From the NCBI GenBank assembly GCA_036740275.1, contig DAINEH010000022.1, positions 609-64,608 on the forward strand: a stretch of DNA of 64,000 nt. Reading direction: 5' to 3'. The DNA is from Paracoccaceae bacterium (GTDB taxonomy: Bacteria > Pseudomonadota > Alphaproteobacteria > Rhodobacterales > Rhodobacteraceae). The position numbers and the translations under genes are program-made. Position 1 is the first letter of the stretch; each line of letters opens with the position of its first letter. Positions 6,744-64,000 of the stretch are shown here, piece by piece. The notes beneath the pieces were generated by a model. The model was not told the origin of the DNA. It searched no databases and worked only from the letters and a program-made list of their open reading frames with translations.

Positions 6744-7876
6744 GCAGGCCGGGCCTGAGGATCGGAGTCCTCTTTTCGCAGTCAGGACCGATGGCGATGA
6801 CAGAGAATGCCCATATCAAGGGCATCCTTCTGGCTTGCGAAGAGATCAACGGGGGCGGTGGCATAGCGGGGCGGATGATCGACCCGATCATCCTGGACCC
6901 GGCCGGGTCGGATGCGCGCTATGCCGCGCTTGCCACCGAACTCTTGCTGAAGCACCGGGCCAACGTCATCTTCGGCGCCTGTCTTTCGACCAGCCGCAAG
7001 GCCGTGCTGCCGGTGGTCGAACGGTTCAACGGTATCCTCTTCTACCCGTCGGTCTACGGGGGGTTCGAGTATTCGCCGAACGTGGTTTACGGTGGGGCGG
7101 TGCCGAACCAGGTTGTGCTGCCCTTGCTCGAATACCTTCTTCAGAACCGGGGGAAGCGGTTTGCCCTGATTGGCTCGGACACGCTTTACGCCCGCGAAGT
7201 GAACCGTATCGTCATGGAGTTTCTTGCGGAAAGCGGCGGGGAAATCGCTCTGGAAACCTATGCACCGCTCGGCGCAACGGAGGGACACTTCGGGGTCATC
7301 CTCTCGCGACTGTCGGACGGGGGCGCGGATGCGATCATTTCCACGGTCGTCGGCGAAGACAGCATCTCGCTCTACAACGCATTTTCCGCGGCCGGGCTGA
7401 ACGGAGAGCGGCTGCCCATCGCTTCGCTCACCACGACAGAATCCGAACTGGGGCGTATCCGGCCGGAGGCGCGAGTCGGCCATATCTCGGTCACGTCCTA
7501 TTTTTCGACCCTCCCGTTGCCAGCAAGCGTTTCGTTCCGCAGCGCGTTTCACCAGCGTTTCGGCAGCGGTGAAGAACCGGGCGTCTACAGTCAGGTCTGC
7601 TATTCGCAGGTCCATATGTTCGCCGATGCCGTGCGCCAGGCCGGCAGCGATGAAACCGACACCCTGCTGTCTGCACTGTCCGGCGCGGTCCTCAAGGGTC
7701 CGGCCGGCGATCTTTTCCTGGATACGGATACCAATCACGCCTCGCTTCGGCCGCTGATCGGCAAAGCTGCGGCGGACGGCACCTTCGAGATCATCTGGCG
7801 GGGTGCGAATGTCATTCGACCGGACCCCTATCTGGTGGGCTACGACCGGTCGGTCGCAGGGCGCATGACAGCATGA
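6740..7876 (+). CDS. amiC: AmiC-like amide-sensing negative regulator (cytoplasmic periplasmic-binding-protein fold)
   Basis: 378 aa with no signal peptide. IGVLFSQSGPMA..., RKAVLPVVER, YPSVYGGFEYSPNVVYGGAVPNQ closely parallel Pseudomonas aeruginosa AmiC as recalled. TTG start overlaps the amidase stop (TTGA). Confidence 0.85.
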   Translation: MSRPGLRIGVLFSQSGPMAMTENAHIKGILLACEEINGGGGIAGRMIDPIILDPAGSDARYAALATELLLKHRANVIFGACLSTSRKAVLPVVERFNGILFYPSVYGGFEYSPNVVYGGAVPNQVVLPLLEYLLQNRGKRFALIGSDTLYAREVNRIVMEFLAESGGEIALETYAPLGATEGHFGVILSRLSDGGADAIISTVVGEDSISLYNAFSAAGLNGERLPIASLTTTESELGRIRPEARVGHISVTSYFSTLPLPASVSFRSAFHQRFGSGEEPGVYSQVCYSQVHMFADAVRQAGSDETDTLLSALSGAVLKGPAGDLFLDTDTNHASLRPLIGKAAADGTFEIIWRGANVIRPDPYLVGYDRSVAGRMTA

Positions 7877-8567: not shown

Positions 8568-12310
<3,743 letters not shown>

Positions 12311-12375
12311 CGGTTCGTCCTCGGGCGGCAAGACAGCATCATATAGGCTATCCGGCCGCCAAAGAGAACAGGCGG

Positions 12376-13413
12376 TCAGCCCCAGTCGAGCACGACCTTG
12401 CCGCTTTTGCCGGATCGCATCGTCTCGAACCCATCCCGGAACTCATCCACCTTGAAGCGGTGGGTGATCACGCGGCGGATGTCGAGGCCGTTTTCCAGCA
12501 TGGCGATCATCTTGTACCAGGTCTCGAAAATCTCGCGACCATAGACGCCCTTGATGGTAATCGCCTTGAAGACGATGCGGGACCAGTCGACCGGCGACTT
12601 GCCCGGCGGGATACCGAGCATGGCGATGCGACCGCCCATCACCATGTTCTCGACCATCTGGTCGAGGGCGATCTGGCTGCCGGACATTTCCATGCCGACA
12701 TCGAATCCTTCCTTCATCTTCAGCTTGCCTTCAACCTCGCGCAGGTCCTGCTTGGCGACGTTGACGGGGACCACATCCGTGACAGCGGCGGCAAGGTCGA
12801 GCCGGTCCTGATTGATATCGGTGATGACGATGTGGCGCGCGCCGACATGGCGGGCGACGGCGGCGGCCATGATGCCGATGGGACCGGCGCCGGTGATGAG
12901 CACATCCTCGCCCACCAGATCGAAGGACAGCGCGGTGTGGACGGCGTTGCCCAGGGGGTCGAGGATCGCGCCGATGTCATCGTCGATCTCATCGGGCAGC
13001 GGCACCACGTTGAAGGCGGGCAGGCGCAGGTATTCGGCAAAGGCGCCCTGTTCGTTGACACCGATGCCGCGCGTGGCGGGGTCAAGGTGGAACTTGCCGG
13101 CGCGGGACTGGCGCGACTGCTTGCCGATCAGGTGGCCCTCGCCGGAGCAGCGCTGGCCAATGGTCAGGCCTTCGACGTTCTTGCCGATCTCGACAATTTC
13201 ACCGGCAAACTCATGGCCGGTGACAAGGCCGACAGGAACGGTCTTCGCCGCCCATTCGTCCCAGTTCCAGATATGAATGTCGGTGCCACAGATGCCGGTC
13301 TTTTTGATGCGGATGAGCACGTCATCCGGGCCGATCTCCGGCACCGGGCGGTTCTCCATCCAGAGGCCAACCTCGGGTTTCACCTTCGCCAGTGCCTTCA
13401 TGTCATTGCGCAT
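12376..13413 (-). CDS. tdh: L-threonine 3-dehydrogenase
   Basis: Zn-ADH family. [22 protein letters not shown]...ICGTDIHIW...[12 protein letters not shown] matches the Tdh N-terminus. The start at 13413 overlaps the kbl stop (TGATG); 13401 is an alternative start. Confidence 0.93.
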
Positions 13414-54272: not shown

Positions 54273-56597
<2,325 letters not shown>

Positions 56598-56641
56598 TTA
56601 GTTTAACTTGGAAGTTCTGATCGGCCTGATAAGTTCTGGTT

Positions 56642-57553
56642 ATGATAAACATGACCTTGAAGCAGCTTCGCTATGTTGACGCCTTGGCCCGACAGGGGCA
56701 CTTCGGCCGGGCAGCCGATGTCAGTGCCGTCACCCAGCCCGCCCTGTCCATGCAGATCCGCGATCTTGAGGCCTCACTCGGCACGGCACTTTTCGAACGC
56801 GGGCCGCGTGAGGTGCGCCTTACGGAGTTCGGCGAAACCTTTGTCGACCGGGCGCGCGCAATCCTCAGATCGGTCGAGGAGCTTGAGGATCTGGCGCGCG
56901 CGGCCGGAGAGCGGCTGAGCGGGCGGCTGAGAATCGGGGTCATTCCGACGATCGCGCCCTACTTCCTGCCGCGGGTGATCGGCGCGCTAAGCCGGCACTA
57001 TCCCGAGCTAGACCTGCAACTGCGCGAAACCACAACGGCGAAGCTCTTGCAGGAGATTGCCGATGGTCGGCTCGACACCGCCATCGTGGCGCTTCCGGTC
57101 TCCGAGCCGTCGCTGGTCGAGGTGCCGCTCTTCTCTGAAGATTTCGTCCTTGTCCGGCATCGTGACGAGGCGCACAAACCGGTACCCAGCCGCGAGATGC
57201 TGCGCGAAATGCGGCTTCTCCTGCTGGAGGAGGGCCACTGCTTCCGCGACCAGGCGCTGTCGTTCTGCGACATGGCCGGCGCGCGCCCGAAGGAGTTGCT
57301 CGATGGCAGTTCGCTCGCCACGCTGGTGCAGATGGTGGGCGCCGGGATCGGCGTGACGCTGATCCCGGACATGGCGGTGGCGGTCGAGACAGGATCGGCA
57401 CCTGTCGCCGTCTCGCGCTTTGCCGGGCCGCAGCCATCGCGCACCATCGGCATGGTCTGGCGCAGGACCAGCCCCCTGACCCGGCAGTTGCAACAGATCA
57501 GCGAGATCGTGAAGGACGTGGGCGAGGCTGCACTGGCTGGCGATAGCCGGTAG
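56642..57553 (+). CDS. oxyR: Hydrogen-peroxide-sensing LysR-family regulator OxyR
   Basis: HTH segment LRYVDALARQGHFGRAADVSAVTQPALSMQIRDLE. Both redox cysteines are in E. coli-like context (EEGHCFRDQALSFCDMAG). Divergent from katG. ATG 56651 is an alternative start. Confidence 0.9.
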   Translation: MINMTLKQLRYVDALARQGHFGRAADVSAVTQPALSMQIRDLEASLGTALFERGPREVRLTEFGETFVDRARAILRSVEELEDLARAAGERLSGRLRIGVIPTIAPYFLPRVIGALSRHYPELDLQLRETTTAKLLQEIADGRLDTAIVALPVSEPSLVEVPLFSEDFVLVRHRDEAHKPVPSREMLREMRLLLLEEGHCFRDQALSFCDMAGARPKELLDGSSLATLVQMVGAGIGVTLIPDMAVAVETGSAPVAVSRFAGPQPSRTIGMVWRRTSPLTRQLQQISEIVKDVGEAALAGDSR

Positions 57554-57568
57554 GGCGACCCGCAAATG

Positions 57569-57603
57569 AAAAACCCGCCGCGCGATCCGTGTCGCGCGGC
57601 GGG
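57569..57603 (-). terminator. Strong rho-independent terminator after the beta-helix gene (also closes oxyR)
   Basis: 12-bp GC stem CCCGCCGCGCGA (57574-57585) / TCGCGCGGCGGG (57592-57603) with a 6-nt loop. The minus strand continues with TTTTT (57573-57569). Confidence 0.8.
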
Positions 57604-57624
57604 GGTACGCAGCAATGGGCGGTA

Positions 57625-59295
57625 TCAGAAGCTTTCGTAGGCGCCCGCGTCCGGGGCCTTGCCCTTCGGCCGCGGCGACTTGGCGATGTCCACGGGTGGA
57701 GCCAGCGTCGGCGCGCCCTTGTCGATGGCGGTCGAGGTCGACTTCAGGGTGAAATCCTGGTTGGCGACCGAGTTGAACTCGCCCAAGGCATTTGTGACCG
57801 TGATGTTGTTGGTCTGAAGGATGCCAAGCGCCGGATTGGTCGTGACCTTGAGCGAGCTCAACAGATTGTTCGCGACGGTCACGTTCTGCGACGGTGTGCC
57901 GTTCTTGTGGTTCGACACGCGGAGCCACGGCCAGTTGCCGGTGGTCCCCATGGCGTGGACGACTGTGTTGTTGGTGATGACGCTGTTCAAGCCGCCGCCG
58001 ATGGTGATGCCGTGATATGCGGTGGACGAGATCAGGTTGTTGCGGATGACAAAGCCGTCATACATCCCGTCGAAGAGACCAATCCCCTGCAGTTTGCAGT
58101 TGATCGGGCTCCGCGCGCCGACGAACTCCAGGAACTTGTTGCCTTCGATGACGATATTGCGCACCACGCCGGTACCGATCTTTCCGGTAGGGCCCCGCGA
58201 AAAGCTCTGGATGCCGTCGATATGGGTGCCGGTGGTCTGGCGGCAGTTCTGCGCCCTGTTGCGGCGAACGACGGAGTTGTCGCCAAGCGCGCGGAATGCG
58301 TCGCCCGCGAAGCCGTCAACAATATTCTCTTCGACGAGGGCATTCTGTCCCAGTACGAAGACACCGTTGTAAACGCCGGTAAGACGGTTGCGGAAGACTG
58401 TCTGGCGCTGACCATCGATCAGGAAGCCGGAGCGCTGGTTGTTGTTCCAGTCGGTCGTGTTCCACTGCTGGTAATTCGTGGAATTGGCCGCCGCACGCAC
58501 GTCGAGATCGGAAAACACCAGGTCGCTGCTGTCATTGTAGCTGCGAACCTGCGCCACGAGGCCGTTGGCGGCTGACGTCGGCCAGACCTTGAGGCCGTTG
58601 ATGACGATCTTGCTCGATGCACGAACGTTGATGCTGTCGACATGGGCGACCTGGCCTGGCATCGACGTGATGGTCACAGGTGACGTGAACTGCAGACCAG
58701 CCAGGACCATCTGGCCATGGTAGCCGCCGAGCAGGTAGATGCGGTCGCCGCCCTGGACCTTGCCGGACTGCAGCAGCGCGCCGAGACTGTTGTAGGTCTG
58801 GCTTGCGGTCATCACAGGGGCCGGCCCCGTGGGGGTCGTTGTGGACGGCGTCGGGGGGGTGCCGGTGGAACCGGTTTGTGACGGCGCGGTGACGACGGGC
58901 GTGGTCGGAGCGGGAGCCGTCGGTGTGGTGGTGGTGGTTCCACCAGTCGTGCCGGACGCTTCCCCGTGGCCGCGGGCGCTGACCCATTTCGCGCCAGGGG
59001 AGACCGCAATCTTATGCGGTTCCTTTGTCTCCGCGCCATTCTGTGCGGTTCCGGTGGCCGGCGCGTCAGTGACGGCAACAGGAGGAATTACTGGTGGCTG
59101 AGTGACAGCGTTCTGCTCCGCGGAGGGGGCGGATACATCGTCCGGGGCGGTTGCCTGCAGCGAAATCGCGGCGACTGCCGTGTTTGCGACGGGTCCCGGG
59201 GTTAGCGGCTGCACGAAGTATTCTGCCGCACTGACCTGTGATCCCAGGATGCTCAGTCCCACGCTTGCCATGAGCAGTGACTTGACGAATGTCAT
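57625..59295 (-). CDS. Secreted right-handed parallel beta-helix repeat protein (polysaccharide lyase/epimerase-like) with a Thr/Pro-rich linker
   Basis: 556 aa. Signal peptide MTFVKSLLMASVGLSILGSQVSA. Linker ...TTGGTTTTTPTAPAPTTPVVTAPSQTGSTGTPPTPSTTTPTGPAP. Repeated PbH1-like units (..VIRNNLI.., ..VITNNTV.., ..VTVANNLL..). C-terminal PDAGAYE motif typical of beta-helix glycan enzymes. Confidence 0.8.
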   Translation of the reverse strand: MTFVKSLLMASVGLSILGSQVSAAEYFVQPLTPGPVANTAVAAISLQATAPDDVSAPSAEQNAVTQPPVIPPVAVTDAPATGTAQNGAETKEPHKIAVSPGAKWVSARGHGEASGTTGGTTTTTPTAPAPTTPVVTAPSQTGSTGTPPTPSTTTPTGPAPVMTASQTYNSLGALLQSGKVQGGDRIYLLGGYHGQMVLAGLQFTSPVTITSMPGQVAHVDSINVRASSKIVINGLKVWPTSAANGLVAQVRSYNDSSDLVFSDLDVRAAANSTNYQQWNTTDWNNNQRSGFLIDGQRQTVFRNRLTGVYNGVFVLGQNALVEENIVDGFAGDAFRALGDNSVVRRNRAQNCRQTTGTHIDGIQSFSRGPTGKIGTGVVRNIVIEGNKFLEFVGARSPINCKLQGIGLFDGMYDGFVIRNNLISSTAYHGITIGGGLNSVITNNTVVHAMGTTGNWPWLRVSNHKNGTPSQNVTVANNLLSSLKVTTNPALGILQTNNITVTNALGEFNSVANQDFTLKSTSTAIDKGAPTLAPPVDIAKSPRPKGKAPDAGAYESF

Positions 59296-59650
59296 TTGGT
59301 ATTCCTTGATCGGTGAGTGTGTCCCTGCTCAGAACAATGCCGTCCAAGATGGCAAAGTTGGGGCACAAATGCAGTCGGGGTGTGTCGCTCCGGGCGAATG
59401 AGCATAATCACGTAAGGACAATCTTAAGGTTTTCGGCGTGATGTCGCCGAAAACGTCCAGCCGCAGTTTATGCTATGGAAACAAACTCAACCGGACGTTG
59501 ATTGTTGGTTTTCTTGCGCGAGAATGGCAGTCGTCTGACAGTGCTGCACTGGGTGCGATGCCACTGCGGTCCGTTCGAATTTCCCGAAAACGGGGCGCGA
59601 ACCGCAGTCGTTCCGATCTGAGGGCTGGCGATTACTGTGGCGCAGTATCG

Positions 59651-62221
59651 TTATGCGGGCATCGTGCGGCGCATCCGGCTTCTCAGGGTCAAGAGGGTTT
59701 TCGGTTCCGGAAGATGGCGCAGCGGAACTGAGGCCGCGACGCCTAGCGCGACGCCGCCGAAGATGGCGAGAAGGTCGAAAACCGGTCCCGGCAGGATGCC
59801 CGCCAGCGGCAGCATCAGCACTTCGGGGGCGAAGCGGTGAAGGAGGTAGATCAGGAAGCTCGCGCGCGCGATTTCAAGAACGATGCGGGCTACGGCCCTC
59901 GGCATCCGGATGTGCGGCAGGTAAAGCAAGGCAGCGATCACCGCGAACTGCGCGCTATACTTGATCCAGGCGCCAAACCAGTTGCCGCCGAGGAACGCCG
60001 CAGCGGGCATCAGAAGTGCTGCCGCCGCAAGGACGGCAAGACGCCGGCCCCGGCTGTCGGCGGTCGCGGCGCACCAGCCGAAGGCGCAAAGGTAGAAGAT
60101 CCAGGGCAGCGTGAAAATCTGGCGGCCACCCAATGGCCAAAGTTCAGGCCCGACCAGCCGCGCGACGGACGCCCCGGCCAGCAGCAAGAGACCAAAGCGG
60201 AACGGCTCGGCGCCGATCAGGCGGCGGACGGTCGGGATCAGCGCCAGCAAGGCCAGTACAAGAAGAAGCTGCGTATAGGCTTCGACGAACCAGTAGAGAT
60301 AGGGCAGCATGTCCTGCCGCACCGGATCACCGAAGCCGAAATTCCCGGCAAGAAAGACCGAGACCCAGGGCACCTGCCCCCAGACCAGCGCATAGGCGAT
60401 CAGGATCAGGTAATAGGGCACGAGGACCTTCCAGAGCGGCCGCAGAAGGCCCGGAACGTCACCCGTCGCCAGAAAGCCGCGCTGGAATCGCCCGAGCCCG
60501 TAGCCGATCAGCACCACCATCGCCGCCGCACCGCCATAGGTCGGCCAGAGCGTCTGATGCTGGACCAGGACGGCGAGAATGGCGAGCGCGCGGATCAGAA
60601 GGTCGGCGCCGATGCCGGCCCCCGCCGCATTCGACGGGCCGGGCGTATGGCGAATACTGCCAAGCTCGGACAGGCTCATCCGTTCCCAGCCACGCGGCAG
60701 ATGGCCGAGGAGCCGCTCCACCTCCATCGAAAGCTCGACATGGCGAAGCGAGTCGCCGCCAAGGCTGGCGAAACTGTCGCTGGGCCGGACGGGTCGCGGA
60801 TCGAAGCAGTGCCGGAAAACGCCAGCTAGGTCGCTGCTCGCTCGTTGGGCGGGCGTGTTCTTGCGCAGGCTTTCGTAATCGACCTTGCCGGAAGCAAGGC
60901 GCGGCAGGTCCGGCACCCTTACGACGCGCACGTGGCGGTTGGTCAGCCCGGTCGCCCGGACGATGAGGTCGGCCACCTCCTCGGGGTCCTGCGCGGAGAC
61001 GTAGCTCGCCGTCAGGCCGCAGTCATCCCCGACCACGGCGGCGCGGATGCCCTGGGCGGCGAGCGCCGCCTCGACCGCATCATGGCCGACCCGAACCCCG
61101 GCGATCTTCGACATCCGCCGCAGCCGGCCGACGATCCGGTAAAGTCCGGCCTCATCACGAACTGCCAGATCGCCGGTCGCCAGCGCGTCGATCTCAGTCC
61201 CGCGCGCGAGATCGGCGCGGGTTTCGGCATAGCCCATCATCACATTGGCGCCGCGATAGATGAGTTCGCCCTCGACGCCAGGTTCTCCAATCGTGCGGCC
61301 ATCGGCGGCGCGCAAGGAAAGGCTGCCGCCGGGGATCGCGATGCCGATGCGGTCGGGCGCCTGTCCTGCCAGTTCCGGCGGCAGATAGGCGATCCGGGCG
61401 GTGGCCTCGGTCTGGCCGTACATGGCGAAGAAACGGCCATCGCGGGTGGCCATGTGGTCGTGCCAGCGCTGGACCCGGTCAGCCGCCATCGCGCCGCCCG
61501 CGACCGTCAGCATCCGAAGCCGTGGCAATGCGGCATCCTTCAGGCCGATCCGCTCAAGCAGTTCGAACGTATGCGGCACGCCGGATAGATTGGTGCAACC
61601 GGCAGACGCGAGCCCGTCAAGGAACCCCGGCGCCAGCACCGAACCCTGATGAAGCCAGAGACAGGCCCCCGCAGCGAGGTGCGAATTCAGGACCGAAAGG
61701 CCATAGGAATAGTGCAGCGGCAGGACCAGCCCGGCACGGTCCTCGGGGCCAAGTTTCAGGTACTCGGCGATGGAGCCGGCGTTGCTTTCCAGCGCCGTGC
61801 CGGAAAGGCGGACGCCCTTGCCGTGGCCGGTGCTGCCCGAGGTCATGAGGATAAGCGCGAGATCGGGGTGAATCTCGCCGCTCTGCGCCCGGCCACCAGC
61901 CAGCAGCCGCCAGCGTCCGTCCAGCCGCCGGAACTGGGACTCAGGGTGGAAGCGGTCGGCGAAGCCGCGCATGGCGTCGCTGTCACCCGAAGGTAAAAGC
62001 GCCACCGCATGTCCCGCCGCGAGGGTGCCAAGGTAGGCAGTGATCGCATGGGCCGACGCCGCCGCCTCGACCGCCACGAGCCGCCTCGGACCCGGAAGCC
62101 GGGCGGCGAAGGCTGCGGTTCGGCGGGCCAGATCGGCATAGCTGACCGTGCCTTCGCCGGGAACGATCAGCGCGGTTCGCTCTCCGTGGCGGGCAAGGTC
62201 GCGGACGAAATCGGGGATCAT
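59651..62221 (-). CDS. Tri-domain fusion: ANL adenylation domain, phosphopantetheine carrier domain, AT3-type integral-membrane acyltransferase
   Basis: 856 aa. Adenylation motifs LMTSGSTGHGKGV, MYGQTEA, ATGDLA, GRLRRMSKIAGVRVG and LASGKVDY. Carrier motif SLGGDSL. The C-terminal ~290 aa hold about 9-10 TM helices beginning LIRALAILAVLVQH (AT3-like conserved His). Confidence 0.85.
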   Translation of the reverse strand: MIPDFVRDLARHGERTALIVPGEGTVSYADLARRTAAFAARLPGPRRLVAVEAAASAHAITAYLGTLAAGHAVALLPSGDSDAMRGFADRFHPESQFRRLDGRWRLLAGGRAQSGEIHPDLALILMTSGSTGHGKGVRLSGTALESNAGSIAEYLKLGPEDRAGLVLPLHYSYGLSVLNSHLAAGACLWLHQGSVLAPGFLDGLASAGCTNLSGVPHTFELLERIGLKDAALPRLRMLTVAGGAMAADRVQRWHDHMATRDGRFFAMYGQTEATARIAYLPPELAGQAPDRIGIAIPGGSLSLRAADGRTIGEPGVEGELIYRGANVMMGYAETRADLARGTEIDALATGDLAVRDEAGLYRIVGRLRRMSKIAGVRVGHDAVEAALAAQGIRAAVVGDDCGLTASYVSAQDPEEVADLIVRATGLTNRHVRVVRVPDLPRLASGKVDYESLRKNTPAQRASSDLAGVFRHCFDPRPVRPSDSFASLGGDSLRHVELSMEVERLLGHLPRGWERMSLSELGSIRHTPGPSNAAGAGIGADLLIRALAILAVLVQHQTLWPTYGGAAAMVVLIGYGLGRFQRGFLATGDVPGLLRPLWKVLVPYYLILIAYALVWGQVPWVSVFLAGNFGFGDPVRQDMLPYLYWFVEAYTQLLLVLALLALIPTVRRLIGAEPFRFGLLLLAGASVARLVGPELWPLGGRQIFTLPWIFYLCAFGWCAATADSRGRRLAVLAAAALLMPAAAFLGGNWFGAWIKYSAQFAVIAALLYLPHIRMPRAVARIVLEIARASFLIYLLHRFAPEVLMLPLAGILPGPVFDLLAIFGGVALGVAASVPLRHLPEPKTLLTLRSRMRRTMPA

Positions 62222-62527
62222 GGACGGCGCGCCTCGGCTCAGGGTCGGGCTGAGCGCTAAGGTAGCTGATTGAAACAGTCAAGAATGAAGAAAAGTGAAA
62301 CACTCAAGAATTGATCGGCGCGAACACCCCGAAGGGCGACGCGCTGCGCCTGGCTGACCCGCAACGGGACAAGATGCCGTCAAGATATTGATCCAGGGCT
62401 GGCTGCCACCGCGCGCCAGATGCGTCCTCTCGGGCGAACCCTGAAGGGGGCTATCAATGAGAATATGGGTAATGGTGCCAGAAGAGGACTCGCAAGAACA
62501 GCGCAAGGCAATGTAATAGCTTTCGTA

Positions 62528-62614
62528 TCTGCCGAGCGGTTATTGCCTGTACGCCCTCCGATACCCCAGTACACTATTTGTTCAGAGGTTCGAGTCTGGA
62601 TCGACGATCCGCCA
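62528..62614 (+). pseudogene. Degenerate tRNA-Ser-like relic (possible fossil integration site)
   Basis: It contains GCCGAGCGGTT (class II tRNA D-loop), a GTAC...GTAC variable-arm-like segment, CAGAGGTTCGAGTCTGG (T-arm-like) and ...TCCGCCA (G73 + CCA). No matching 5' acceptor strand or anticodon arm can be folded. Confidence 0.3.
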
Positions 62615-62688
62615 CTAGGGTCAGGACCCATTGATCTGCTTGAGGCTACCGTCGCTGCGTGATTCAAGGCCCCGAGCTGACGGGGGTG

Positions 62689-63424
62689 ATGATGAGTAAT
62701 CTTTTCTGGCTGACGGACGAGCAGATAGAGCGGCTGAAGCCGTTCTTTCCGAAGAGCCATGGCAAGCCGCGCGTTGATGACCTGCGTGTTCTGAGTGGGA
62801 TAGTCTTCATCAATCGCAATGGCTTGAGATGGTGCGATGCTCCGCGTGAGTAGGGGCCGCCGAAGACGCTCTACAACCGGTGGAAGCGATCGGGTGACAT
62901 GGGGGTCTTCGCGCGAATGATGGAGGGGCTGGCCTCCGAGGGCACCGAGCAGAAGACCATCATGATCGACGCCACCTACATCAAGGCGCACCGCACGGCT
63001 TCGAGCCTGCGGGCGAAAAAGGGGGGCGGGACGACCAGCGCGGGCGTCTGATCGGGCGCACGAAAGGCGGGCTGAACACCAAGTTGCACGCTGTCACGGC
63101 CGCCAAGGGTCGTCCGCTGAAGTTCTTCATGACCGCAGGCCAGGTCAGCGACTATACCGGAGCCGCAGCCCTGCTGGGCAGCTTGCCATCGGCGGAATGG
63201 CGGCTCGCAGACCGGGGCAATCCAGCCTGCGTGTCGCCATCGGTTCGAGACCGCTGGCGAGGGCCGGCTGATTCAGAGATGCGTTGAAAGACAAGGGGAT
63301 ACGCCCCTGCATCCCCGGCCGGAAGTCGCGCAGCAAGACCGTCCGCTACCACAAACGACGTTACCGGCGCCGCAACCGCATCGAGATCATGTTCGGTCGA
63401 TTGAAAGATTGGCGCAGGATCGCA
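62689..63424 (+). mobile_element. Decayed IS5-family (IS427/IS1031-like) insertion sequence; transposase pseudogene
   Basis: MSNLFWLTDEQIERLKPFFPKSHGKPRVDDLRVLSGIVFINRNGLRWCDAPRE is followed by TAG (62851-62853). The frame then continues GPPKTLYNRWKR...IDATYIKAHRTASSLRAKKGG, shifts at the AAAAAGGGGGG run to ..RLIGRTKGGLNTKLHAV..ADRG, then carries a ~40-nt insertion and a TGA before FRDALKDKGIRPCIPGRKSR..IEIMFGRLKDWRRIA. The 3' end and terminal repeat could not be identified. Confidence 0.8.
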
Positions 63425-63437
63425 TCCTCGCGCTCAC

Positions 63438-64000
63438 CTACGCCCGCTGCAAATCGCTGATCCTGCCGGACGAACTCGCCGACCAGGGCATCATGGCGAT
63501 GTACCGGCAAAGCGCCGTGGCCCAATCCTGCATCGCGGGGGAGAGATAGCCCTTTCGGGTCGCGTCGGCGACCTTTTCACGGGCGCGCTCCTCGCTCATT
63601 GTGGCGAGGTTCGTATTCCGCTCCGCGAGTATCGCCTGGACGGTCACGATGAGTACAAACCTGGCAGGGTCCGGCGCGGCCAGCAGCTCCGCCACCTGTT
63701 CAACCGTCTTCTGGTCTTTCATCGGCGCGCCCGCGATCTTCGACTGGGTGGCCTTCATCTTTTCGATGAGGGCGGGAACGTCTTCGGGCGGGGTGTTGGG
63801 TTCCAGGTTGAGGGCTTCGATCACCTGTTGCAGGAAATCCGCTTCGTGGTTCATGTCAGCCAGCTGATTGCCGAGTGCGGTGCGGTGAAGAGCCGGATGG
63901 TGAACAAGCCCGCCGCCCTTGAAGACCGCCGGATCGAAGCCGTCATCCGGCCGCTTCGCTCCCCCCGGCGCAAGGCGGCACAGGGCTCTGCAACCGAGCG
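63438..64000 (-). CDS. Phage Mu gpI-like protease/scaffold protein fragment (open at window edge, C-terminus possibly truncated)
   Basis: The reading frame stays open upstream of the track's ATG (63854) to the window end (..GGLVHHPALHRTALGNQLADMNHE..). The coiled-coil-like middle and GYLSPAMQDWATAL resemble Mu-like prophage I proteins as recalled. The last ~25 aa look unrelated and abut the IS remnant. Confidence 0.35.
   Translation of the reverse strand, partial: LGCRALCRLAPGGAKRPDDGFDPAVFKGGGLVHHPALHRTALGNQLADMNHEADFLQQVIEALNLEPNTPPEDVPALIEKMKATQSKIAGAPMKDQKTVEQVAELLAAPDPARFVLIVTVQAILAERNTNLATMSEERAREKVADATRKGYLSPAMQDWATALCRYIAMMPWSASSSGRISDLQRA

Follow-up and report, generated by a model that had tools for sequence, protein, structure and literature searches.

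How might a bacterium use a single polypeptide in which an acid-activating enzyme, a carrier protein and a membrane acyltransferase are joined end to end? The question is raised by a gene in a 64,000-nucleotide (64-kb) stretch of contig DAINEH010000022.1 (Paracoccaceae bacterium, assembly GCA_036740275.1), referred to here as the window. Coordinates are positions in this window, and the coding strand of the gene is the minus strand. The protein combines an adenylation domain of the ANL type (A), a carrier or thiolation domain (T) and an AT3 membrane domain, and is called A-T-AT3 below. With moderate confidence, and from sequence comparisons, it is proposed to be an iron-starvation-induced, self-loading, ATP-driven transmembrane acyltransferase that would serve ferric-iron acquisition together with the importer FbpABC. 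The gene and its domains are located as follows.

59651..62221, minus strand: A-T-AT3 gene, a single unbroken open reading frame (ORF) of 856 amino acids (aa) with an ATG start
60842..62221, minus strand: ANL adenylation domain, about residues 1-460 (Pfam AMP-binding)
60647..60829, minus strand: carrier (thiolation) domain, about residues 465-525 (PP-binding; LGGDSL)
59714..60610, minus strand: AT3 (Acyl_transf_3) membrane domain, residues 538-836 (Pfam; 10 predicted transmembrane helices)

Domains of the fusion protein and their conservation

The fusion of adenylation, carrier and AT3 domains in one polypeptide, which had been claimed in an earlier note on this DNA, is real. The ORF has no internal stop. 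The product is 100% identical to a protein from an Albidovulum sp. metagenome-assembled genome that is titled only 'AMP-binding protein'. The best 120 homologues are 51-89% identical, 837-957 aa long and aligned over at least 93% of the query, and their names are all generic. The fusion is kept down to about 25-30% identity.

A scan of 1.84 billion representatives with the carrier and AT3 part alone (residues 465-856) returned 1198 clusters (50% identity) at E<=1e-3 and 841 at E<=1e-10. Among the 150 best representatives, 93 are 780-960 aa long, with the T+AT3 match starting near residue 405-530. Confirmed relatives were found in at least 598 species genomes in a scan of species-representative genomes; their hosts are Rhizobiales, Rhodobacterales, Rhodospirillales, Caulobacterales, Sphingomonadales, some Gammaproteobacteria and many Actinomycetota. 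Two samples were used for what follows. The neighbourhood sample consisted of 80 fetched loci from three phyla or classes, in 76 of which the ORF is full length; the homologous ORF is shortened to 517-663 aa in L028, L035, L038 and L065, which may be frameshifts or pseudogenes. The diverse set consisted of 31 family members (25-62% identity, Proteobacteria and Actinomycetota), among which the catalytic residues of all three domains (P-loop, TGD351, K446, S491, R544 and H555) are invariant or nearly so.

Two metagenomic proteins vary the layout. P0128 (1212 aa) has the order A-T-AT3-T-AT3, that is, tandem carrier and AT3 units, while P0252 (1435 aa) carries a sulfotransferase domain N-terminal to A-T-AT3. 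Full-text literature searches found no published characterization of the A-T-AT3 architecture; the matches to Xenorhabdus AT38 and to a 2005 domain survey were set aside as irrelevant to it.

The adenylation domain is clearly recognized by Pfam AMP-binding (137.2 bits, gathering threshold 29.9). Its core motifs T127SGSTG (P-loop), Y268GQTE, T349GD351, G365R366..SK372 and SG445K446 are invariant or nearly so. The A4 region reads LPLHYSYGLSV and A5 reads MYGQTEATAR. The motifs HYSYGLSV (residues 170-177), LGGDSL (487-492) and LAVLVQH (549-555) all lie where the earlier note had placed them. That note had also suspected that the amino-binding Asp might be absent. This was borne out, with the position mapping to S172 and not to G174. 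HMMER alignments pair S172 with the amino-binding Asp of CmnG (TFDPSV) and with VinN D230 (SWDFGL); across the family the position is Ser, Cys or Ala, and an equivalent of GrsA D235 is lacking. Because Ser, Cys or Ala replaces the amino-binding Asp, the non-amino carboxylic acid substrate that had been suggested is supported.

The closest solved structures of the A domain are CmnG, VinN, HitB and PltF, which are stand-alone enzymes of the nonribosomal peptide synthetase type, together with malonate and oxalate coenzyme A (CoA) ligases (MatB, oxalate-CoA ligase). A Foldseek search with the full-length model matched only A and A-T structures (E about 1e-22). R276 is invariant and is aligned with VinN R331, a residue that sits in the beta13-beta14 substrate loop (PMC11253843). 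By motif anchoring we infer the pocket residues to be S172, Y173, S176, T239, A241, M267, A275 and R276. At low confidence, such a pocket would point to a small polar or anionic acid.

The carrier domain is predicted to be phosphopantetheinylated at Ser491 (codon 60749-60751). F484, L487, G489, D490 and S491 are invariant in the 31 sequences, so the carrier serine singled out earlier is conserved in orthologues across phyla. PP-binding is matched by 19 of the 31 members at E<=1e-3 (best 1.4e-9, up to 39.8 bits), and P0128 scores 40 bits, above the curated cut-off. These features bear on an alternative in which the carrier would not be the donor at all: the A domain would make acyl-CoA locally (or only acyl-AMP), the AT3 domain would use that acyl-CoA, and the T-like segment would be a linker. 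Acyl-CoA is indeed the sole proven AT3 donor, the PP-binding score of the query is sub-threshold, and many of the top A-domain matches are CoA ligases. Nevertheless, a mere linker is hard to square with a GGDS motif and Ser491 kept across phyla, with PP-binding scores above the cut-off in many members, with the T domain repeated before each of the two AT3 domains of P0128, or with a Photobacterium variant that retains T next to a different acyltransferase. This alternative is considered highly improbable. The invariant Ser491, the P0128 layout and the Photobacterium module argue instead for a carrier used as donor.

For the C-terminal region, AT3 homology had been claimed. Acyl_transf_3 covers residues 543-834 of the query at profile positions 7-324 of 326, with a score below the gathering threshold (26.6 bits, E=4e-6), and 26 of the 31 diverse members match it (best 4e-14). 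Scores above the cut-off were obtained for relatives (P0128, 61.2 bits; L080, 41.6 bits; P0181, 39.6 bits). Exactly 10 residues separate R544 (codon 60590-60592) from H555 (codon 60557-60559), both in transmembrane helix 1 (TM1); conservation is complete for H555 and at least 90% for R544. An R/K-X10-H motif defines AT3 proteins, and in OafA both R14 and H25 are essential (PMC7448272). Y792 and H795 are likewise invariant or at least 90% conserved. The query has R578-F-Q-R581 at the position of the RXXR motif after the second helix; the family keeps R578 alone.

The AlphaFold model of T+AT3 is a confident one and has ten membrane helices (predicted local distance difference test score, pLDDT, 88; predicted TM-score, pTM, 0.87). 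Lys and Arg residues cluster on alternate loops, consistent with a topology in which both termini are inside. With the N-terminus inside, the A-T module would lie in the cytoplasm, and TM1 would run from R544 at its cytoplasmic end to H555 at its outer end. A phmmer search of the AT3 region against the PDB gave no match, and an hhalign comparison of the family with one E. coli OpgC sequence was not significant.

Predicted iron operators and ferric-iron importer genes

The promoter region of the gene holds two elements.

62267..62281, no strand assigned: TGA-N9-TCA box TGATTGAAACAGTCA, 46-60 nt upstream of the ATG; candidate RirA/Iron-Rhodo-type operator
62271-62286 and 62296-62311, minus strand: 16-nt direct repeat in two copies, ATTCTTGA(G/C)TGTTTCA, in coding-strand sense

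In Actinomycetota, the IdeR/DmdR box TTAGGTTAGGCTAACCTAA was sought with at most 5 mismatches between -300 and +120 of the gene or operon start. The same sequence serves as a DmdR1 site upstream of siderophore clusters (PMC7174319). A box was predicted in 37 of the 44 actinobacterial loci, with 48 sites in this promoter interval versus 3 elsewhere in 914 kb. The consensus of the actinobacterial sites is a perfect palindrome, TTAGGTAAGGCTTACCTAA. Twelve box-positive loci are without fbpABC, and the genes upstream in these loci are mutually unrelated; the predicted box is therefore assigned to the A-T-AT3 gene itself.

In Proteobacteria, the exact motif TGA-N9-TCA occurs in 15 of 37 loci, in 14 of them at -37 to -85 and in the 15th at position 0; the window, in addition, carries it at -60. 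Its background rate is 0.31 per kb. The RirA IRO box and the Iron-Rhodo-box of Rhodobacteraceae, which resemble each other, have TGA-N9-TCA as their core (PMC1698941). The box in the window overlaps a TTGAC -35-like element; given that element, a TCA at the fixed spacing is still far above chance. L086, an 88%-identical relative, carries an identical box, and in Phyllobacterium, Mesorhizobium cantuariense and Leisingera a box with one mismatch stands at the equivalent position. Upstream of the gene, the proteobacterial loci showed neither Irr ICE boxes nor Fur boxes of the E. coli type.

The proximal copy of the 16-nt repeat contains the TGA-N9-TCA box. L086 has the proximal copy alone, and in Rubellimicrobium (L001) the core TTGACTGTTTCA is retained. 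Two loci of oceanospirillal type (L019, about 9690-9740; L022, about 7200-7250) share another upstream element, ATAGGACTTACTC(T/G)CATCTG, which occurs twice in L019 and fits none of the iron boxes tested. Taken together, the predicted sites suggest that the family is under iron control in two phyla, through regulators that are not related to each other (IdeR and RirA-type).

The neighbours of the gene were compared by clustering all ORFs of the 80 loci. The sole widely conserved neighbours are three genes of an ABC importer (binding protein, permease and ATPase), present in 28 of the 80. The binding protein belongs to the FbpA/HitA/SfuA family (E=1e-67 to 7w3w and 8e-142 to Bordetella FbpA, 1y9u). 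An assignment as a 2-aminoethylphosphonate importer, given by NCBIfam models with scores far under their cut-offs, was dropped in view of these PDB matches to the FbpA ferric-iron family. The fbpABC genes diverge from the A-T-AT3 gene in 16 loci, precede it in the same orientation in 10 and lie downstream of it in 2-3. In L058, the stop of the upstream co-directional fbp gene and the start of the A-T-AT3 gene overlap. The linkage was also seen in two Rhizobium species.

The gene order bears on a more general role, close to the glycan acylation envisaged in the earlier note, in which the protein would attach an unusual acid by O-acylation to lipopolysaccharide (LPS), exopolysaccharide (EPS), a wall polymer or a periplasmic glucan and have no special part in iron uptake. 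Such decoration would fit the family at large, as most characterized AT3 proteins acylate extracytoplasmic glycans (PMC9558356). It would also fit single loci: the gene lies near polysaccharide export genes in Rubellimicrobium, adjoins a glycosyltransferase in Oharaeibacter and has a gene for a secreted beta-helix protein as its neighbour in the window. Across the 80 loci, however, not one glycan-synthesis gene is conserved beside the A-T-AT3 gene, and the features that are conserved are the predicted iron operators and FbpABC. Generic glycan decoration is accordingly judged improbable. A glycan modification induced by iron starvation would merge with the favored explanation.

On another reading of the same evidence, the protein would export or assemble a small ligand for iron. 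Here the AT3 domain would hydrolyse or esterify the carrier-bound acid at the outer face, and the product set free, either a chelating acid or a simple siderophore of the ester type, would be put to use by FbpABC. The predicted iron regulon and the linkage to FbpABC are as expected for such a role, an EntS-type MFS_3 exporter gene adjoins the A-T-AT3 gene in Marinobacterium, malonate- and oxalate-activating ligases are among the closest relatives of the A domain, and its predicted pocket is polar with an invariant Arg. The proposal is nevertheless doubtful, since release of a free acid is not known for any AT3 protein, export of acids by simple transporters would be far cheaper, and no siderophore biosynthesis genes are conserved nearby across the 80 loci. 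In L019, an EntS-like MFS_3 exporter gene lies convergent downstream.

Surroundings of the gene in the window

The gene directly downstream, in the same direction, encodes the secreted beta-helix protein that had been noticed earlier.

57625..59295, minus strand: secreted right-handed beta-helix protein, 556 aa (Pfam Beta_helix; NCBIfam choice_anch_Q)

The protein is Thr/Pro-rich and ends in a choice-of-anchor Q C-terminus. In the locus of the 88%-identical orthologue (L086), a beta-helix gene occupies the same downstream position (10927-12663). It is absent in P0009 and in more distant loci, and is thus kept only among close relatives. No convincing terminator was found between the A-T-AT3 gene and the beta-helix gene, so co-transcription is possible. 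Just past the beta-helix gene, a catalase-peroxidase (two peroxidase domains) is divergent from a LysR regulator (54273-57553), a pair that we take to be katG-oxyR-like.

The accessory setting described in the earlier note was found again in all but one of its parts. The guanine-plus-cytosine content is 0.57-0.58 on either side versus 0.63-0.70 within the gene. The insertion sequence (IS) remnant corresponds to a fragment of DUF4096 type (62692-62850); the IS4/5-family transposase to which it belongs (62692-63420) seems broken by a stop and frameshifts. The phage debris is a fragment of a Mu-like prophage protein at 63438-63854 on the minus strand. The tRNA relic was not upheld, as ARAGORN detected no tRNA in 55000-64000; a T-loop-like GGTTCGAGTC is nevertheless present at 62587-62596. 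The orthologue in Mesorhizobium cantuariense is likewise flanked by IS copies of the DUF4096 type.

Proposed mechanism, known systems and meaning

In the favored explanation, the cytoplasmic A domain would convert a free carboxylic acid, probably small, polar or anionic and without an alpha-amino group, to the acyl-AMP and would then move the acyl group onto the phosphopantetheine thiol at Ser491 of the fused carrier. The acyl-pantetheine arm would insert into the AT3 cavity that opens to the cytoplasm, where the pantetheine arm of acyl-CoA usually sits. This insertion is plausible because holo-carriers and CoA present chemically identical pantetheine arms. R544 (inner end of TM1) and H555 (outer end) would then deliver the acyl group to a hydroxyl acceptor or a water molecule outside the membrane. 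The architecture, the conserved residues, the topology, the predicted operators and the gene linkage are shown here; both the transfer from carrier to AT3 and the extracytoplasmic acceptor are, we infer, parts of this route.

The product would form part of siderophore-independent ferric-iron acquisition, a role that is thought most likely because of the predicted iron-starvation regulons and the frequent predicted co-transcription with fbpABC. A more specific form of this proposal is held only tentatively, and is rather unlikely: the family might be the missing part of siderophore-independent uptake, with group translocation from carrier to AT3 bringing a small anionic acid (e.g. a dicarboxylate) to the outside, where, esterified to an envelope polymer or released, it would be the Fe(III) ligand or synergistic anion that yields iron to FbpA.

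Several observations weigh against the proposal of an iron-regulated, carrier-fed acyltransferase. Two of the three domains score below their gathering thresholds in the query itself, PP-binding at 17.3 bits (residues 474-506; threshold 20.8) and Acyl_transf_3 at its 26.6 bits (threshold 31). Foldseek found no significant match for the T+AT3 model in the PDB (top TM-score 0.36, to HGSNAT 8vli, E=1.5), and BFVD gave no match. Every demonstrated AT3 donor is acyl-CoA (PMC9558356), and the argument for a carrier as donor here is drawn from sequence. The iron link of the A-T-AT3 family is new here and rests on predicted operators and gene order. In the window itself, there is no fbpA, fbpB or fbpABC in the 64 kb. 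The operator-like box of the window is statistically weak on its own: 22 TGA-N9-TCA motifs were counted in the window versus 10 +/- 2.8 in shuffled sequences, none of 100 of which reached 22. The excess probably stems from codon usage inside genes, and it makes the motif weaker evidence when taken alone. In addition, the actinobacterial loci are often related by descent, so their counts overstate independence.

Among known systems, DltABCD, which D-alanylates teichoic acids (DltA, adenylation enzyme; DltC, carrier protein; DltB, MBOAT; DltD, SGNH-like), is the nearest in principle. There, as in the route proposed for A-T-AT3, an ATP-dependent adenylation is followed by a carrier phosphopantetheine thioester and by a polytopic acyltransferase with a catalytic His that moves the acyl group outside. 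The membrane domain of A-T-AT3, however, is of the AT3/TmAT type and not an MBOAT, its parts are all in one polypeptide, the amino-binding Asp is absent and iron regulation is predicted for the family. Between DltA and the A domain the similarity is distant (E=6e-9). The protein may thus work like Dlt without being a member of that system.

A protein of Photobacterium sanctipauli (L085, 9998-14071) has a 38%-identical A-T module, one transmembrane helix and a GDSL/SGNH domain in place of AT3. It too is without the amino-binding Asp (QYSFG), and an ORF for an MBOAT protein (83 bits) begins 1 nt after its stop. The Dlt analogy drawn in the earlier note is apt as a working principle, in that this A-T-SGNH protein and its MBOAT resemble DltA-DltC-DltD plus DltB.

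With the AT3 O-acyltransferases (OafA/OafB, OatA, Oac, OpgC, ExoH/ExoZ and NolL; PF01757), the protein shares the domain of 10 transmembrane helices, the R-X10-H motif in TM1 and the N-in topology. Known AT3 proteins are stand-alone or fused to SGNH, racemase or NRF domains, and an A-T fusion is not listed; reviews conclude that the donor is acyl-CoA and not an acyl carrier protein (PMC9558356, PMC12423673). The SGNH and racemase domains of known members are C-terminal, whereas the A-T module here is N-terminal. As an AT3 member, the protein carries a putative donor module without precedent.

AimS of Acinetobacter baumannii is a stand-alone AT3 protein induced by Fe/Zn starvation, in which His and Arg are essential and whose target is unknown (PMC13345540). 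Judged by its description, it shares with A-T-AT3 the setting of an AT3 protein in a metal-starvation response, but it lacks an A-T module and a link to FbpABC, and it leaves the cellular metal content unaltered.

Aas (acyl-ACP synthetase / 2-acyl-GPE acyltransferase) and the MbtM-MbtL-MbtK system of mycobactin lipidation are alike in that an ANL enzyme activates an acid that is coupled via a carrier to an acyltransferase, and the A domain scores 55-92 bits with the corresponding NCBIfam models (Aas and MbtM). Their acyltransferases, by contrast, belong to the PlsC or GNAT type and work at the cytoplasmic face or inside it, and their carrier is not part of the same polypeptide. IdeR regulates the mbt genes. 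The best family-level match of the A domain, and its best NCBIfam match, is TIGR03098, the exosortase A-associated acyl-CoA ligase (161 bits), a family tied to envelope or EPS modification whose substrate is unknown. The score is far under the cut-off of 592, and TIGR03098 proteins are not fused to T or AT3.

If the proposal is true, A-T-AT3 would be the first case in which a carrier-protein thioester, and not acyl-CoA, feeds an AT3/TmAT enzyme. The fused loading module would show that the AT3 fold accepts a protein-tethered pantetheine thioester, and if so, acids without a CoA pool could cross the membrane. Hundreds of 50%-identity clusters in three major lineages make up this large family, and they carry generic names only. 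To our knowledge, the supply of Fe(III) to FbpABC is not well understood for monoderm bacteria or for bacteria that have no transferrin receptors, and the A-T-AT3 gene would offer a concrete handle on this question.

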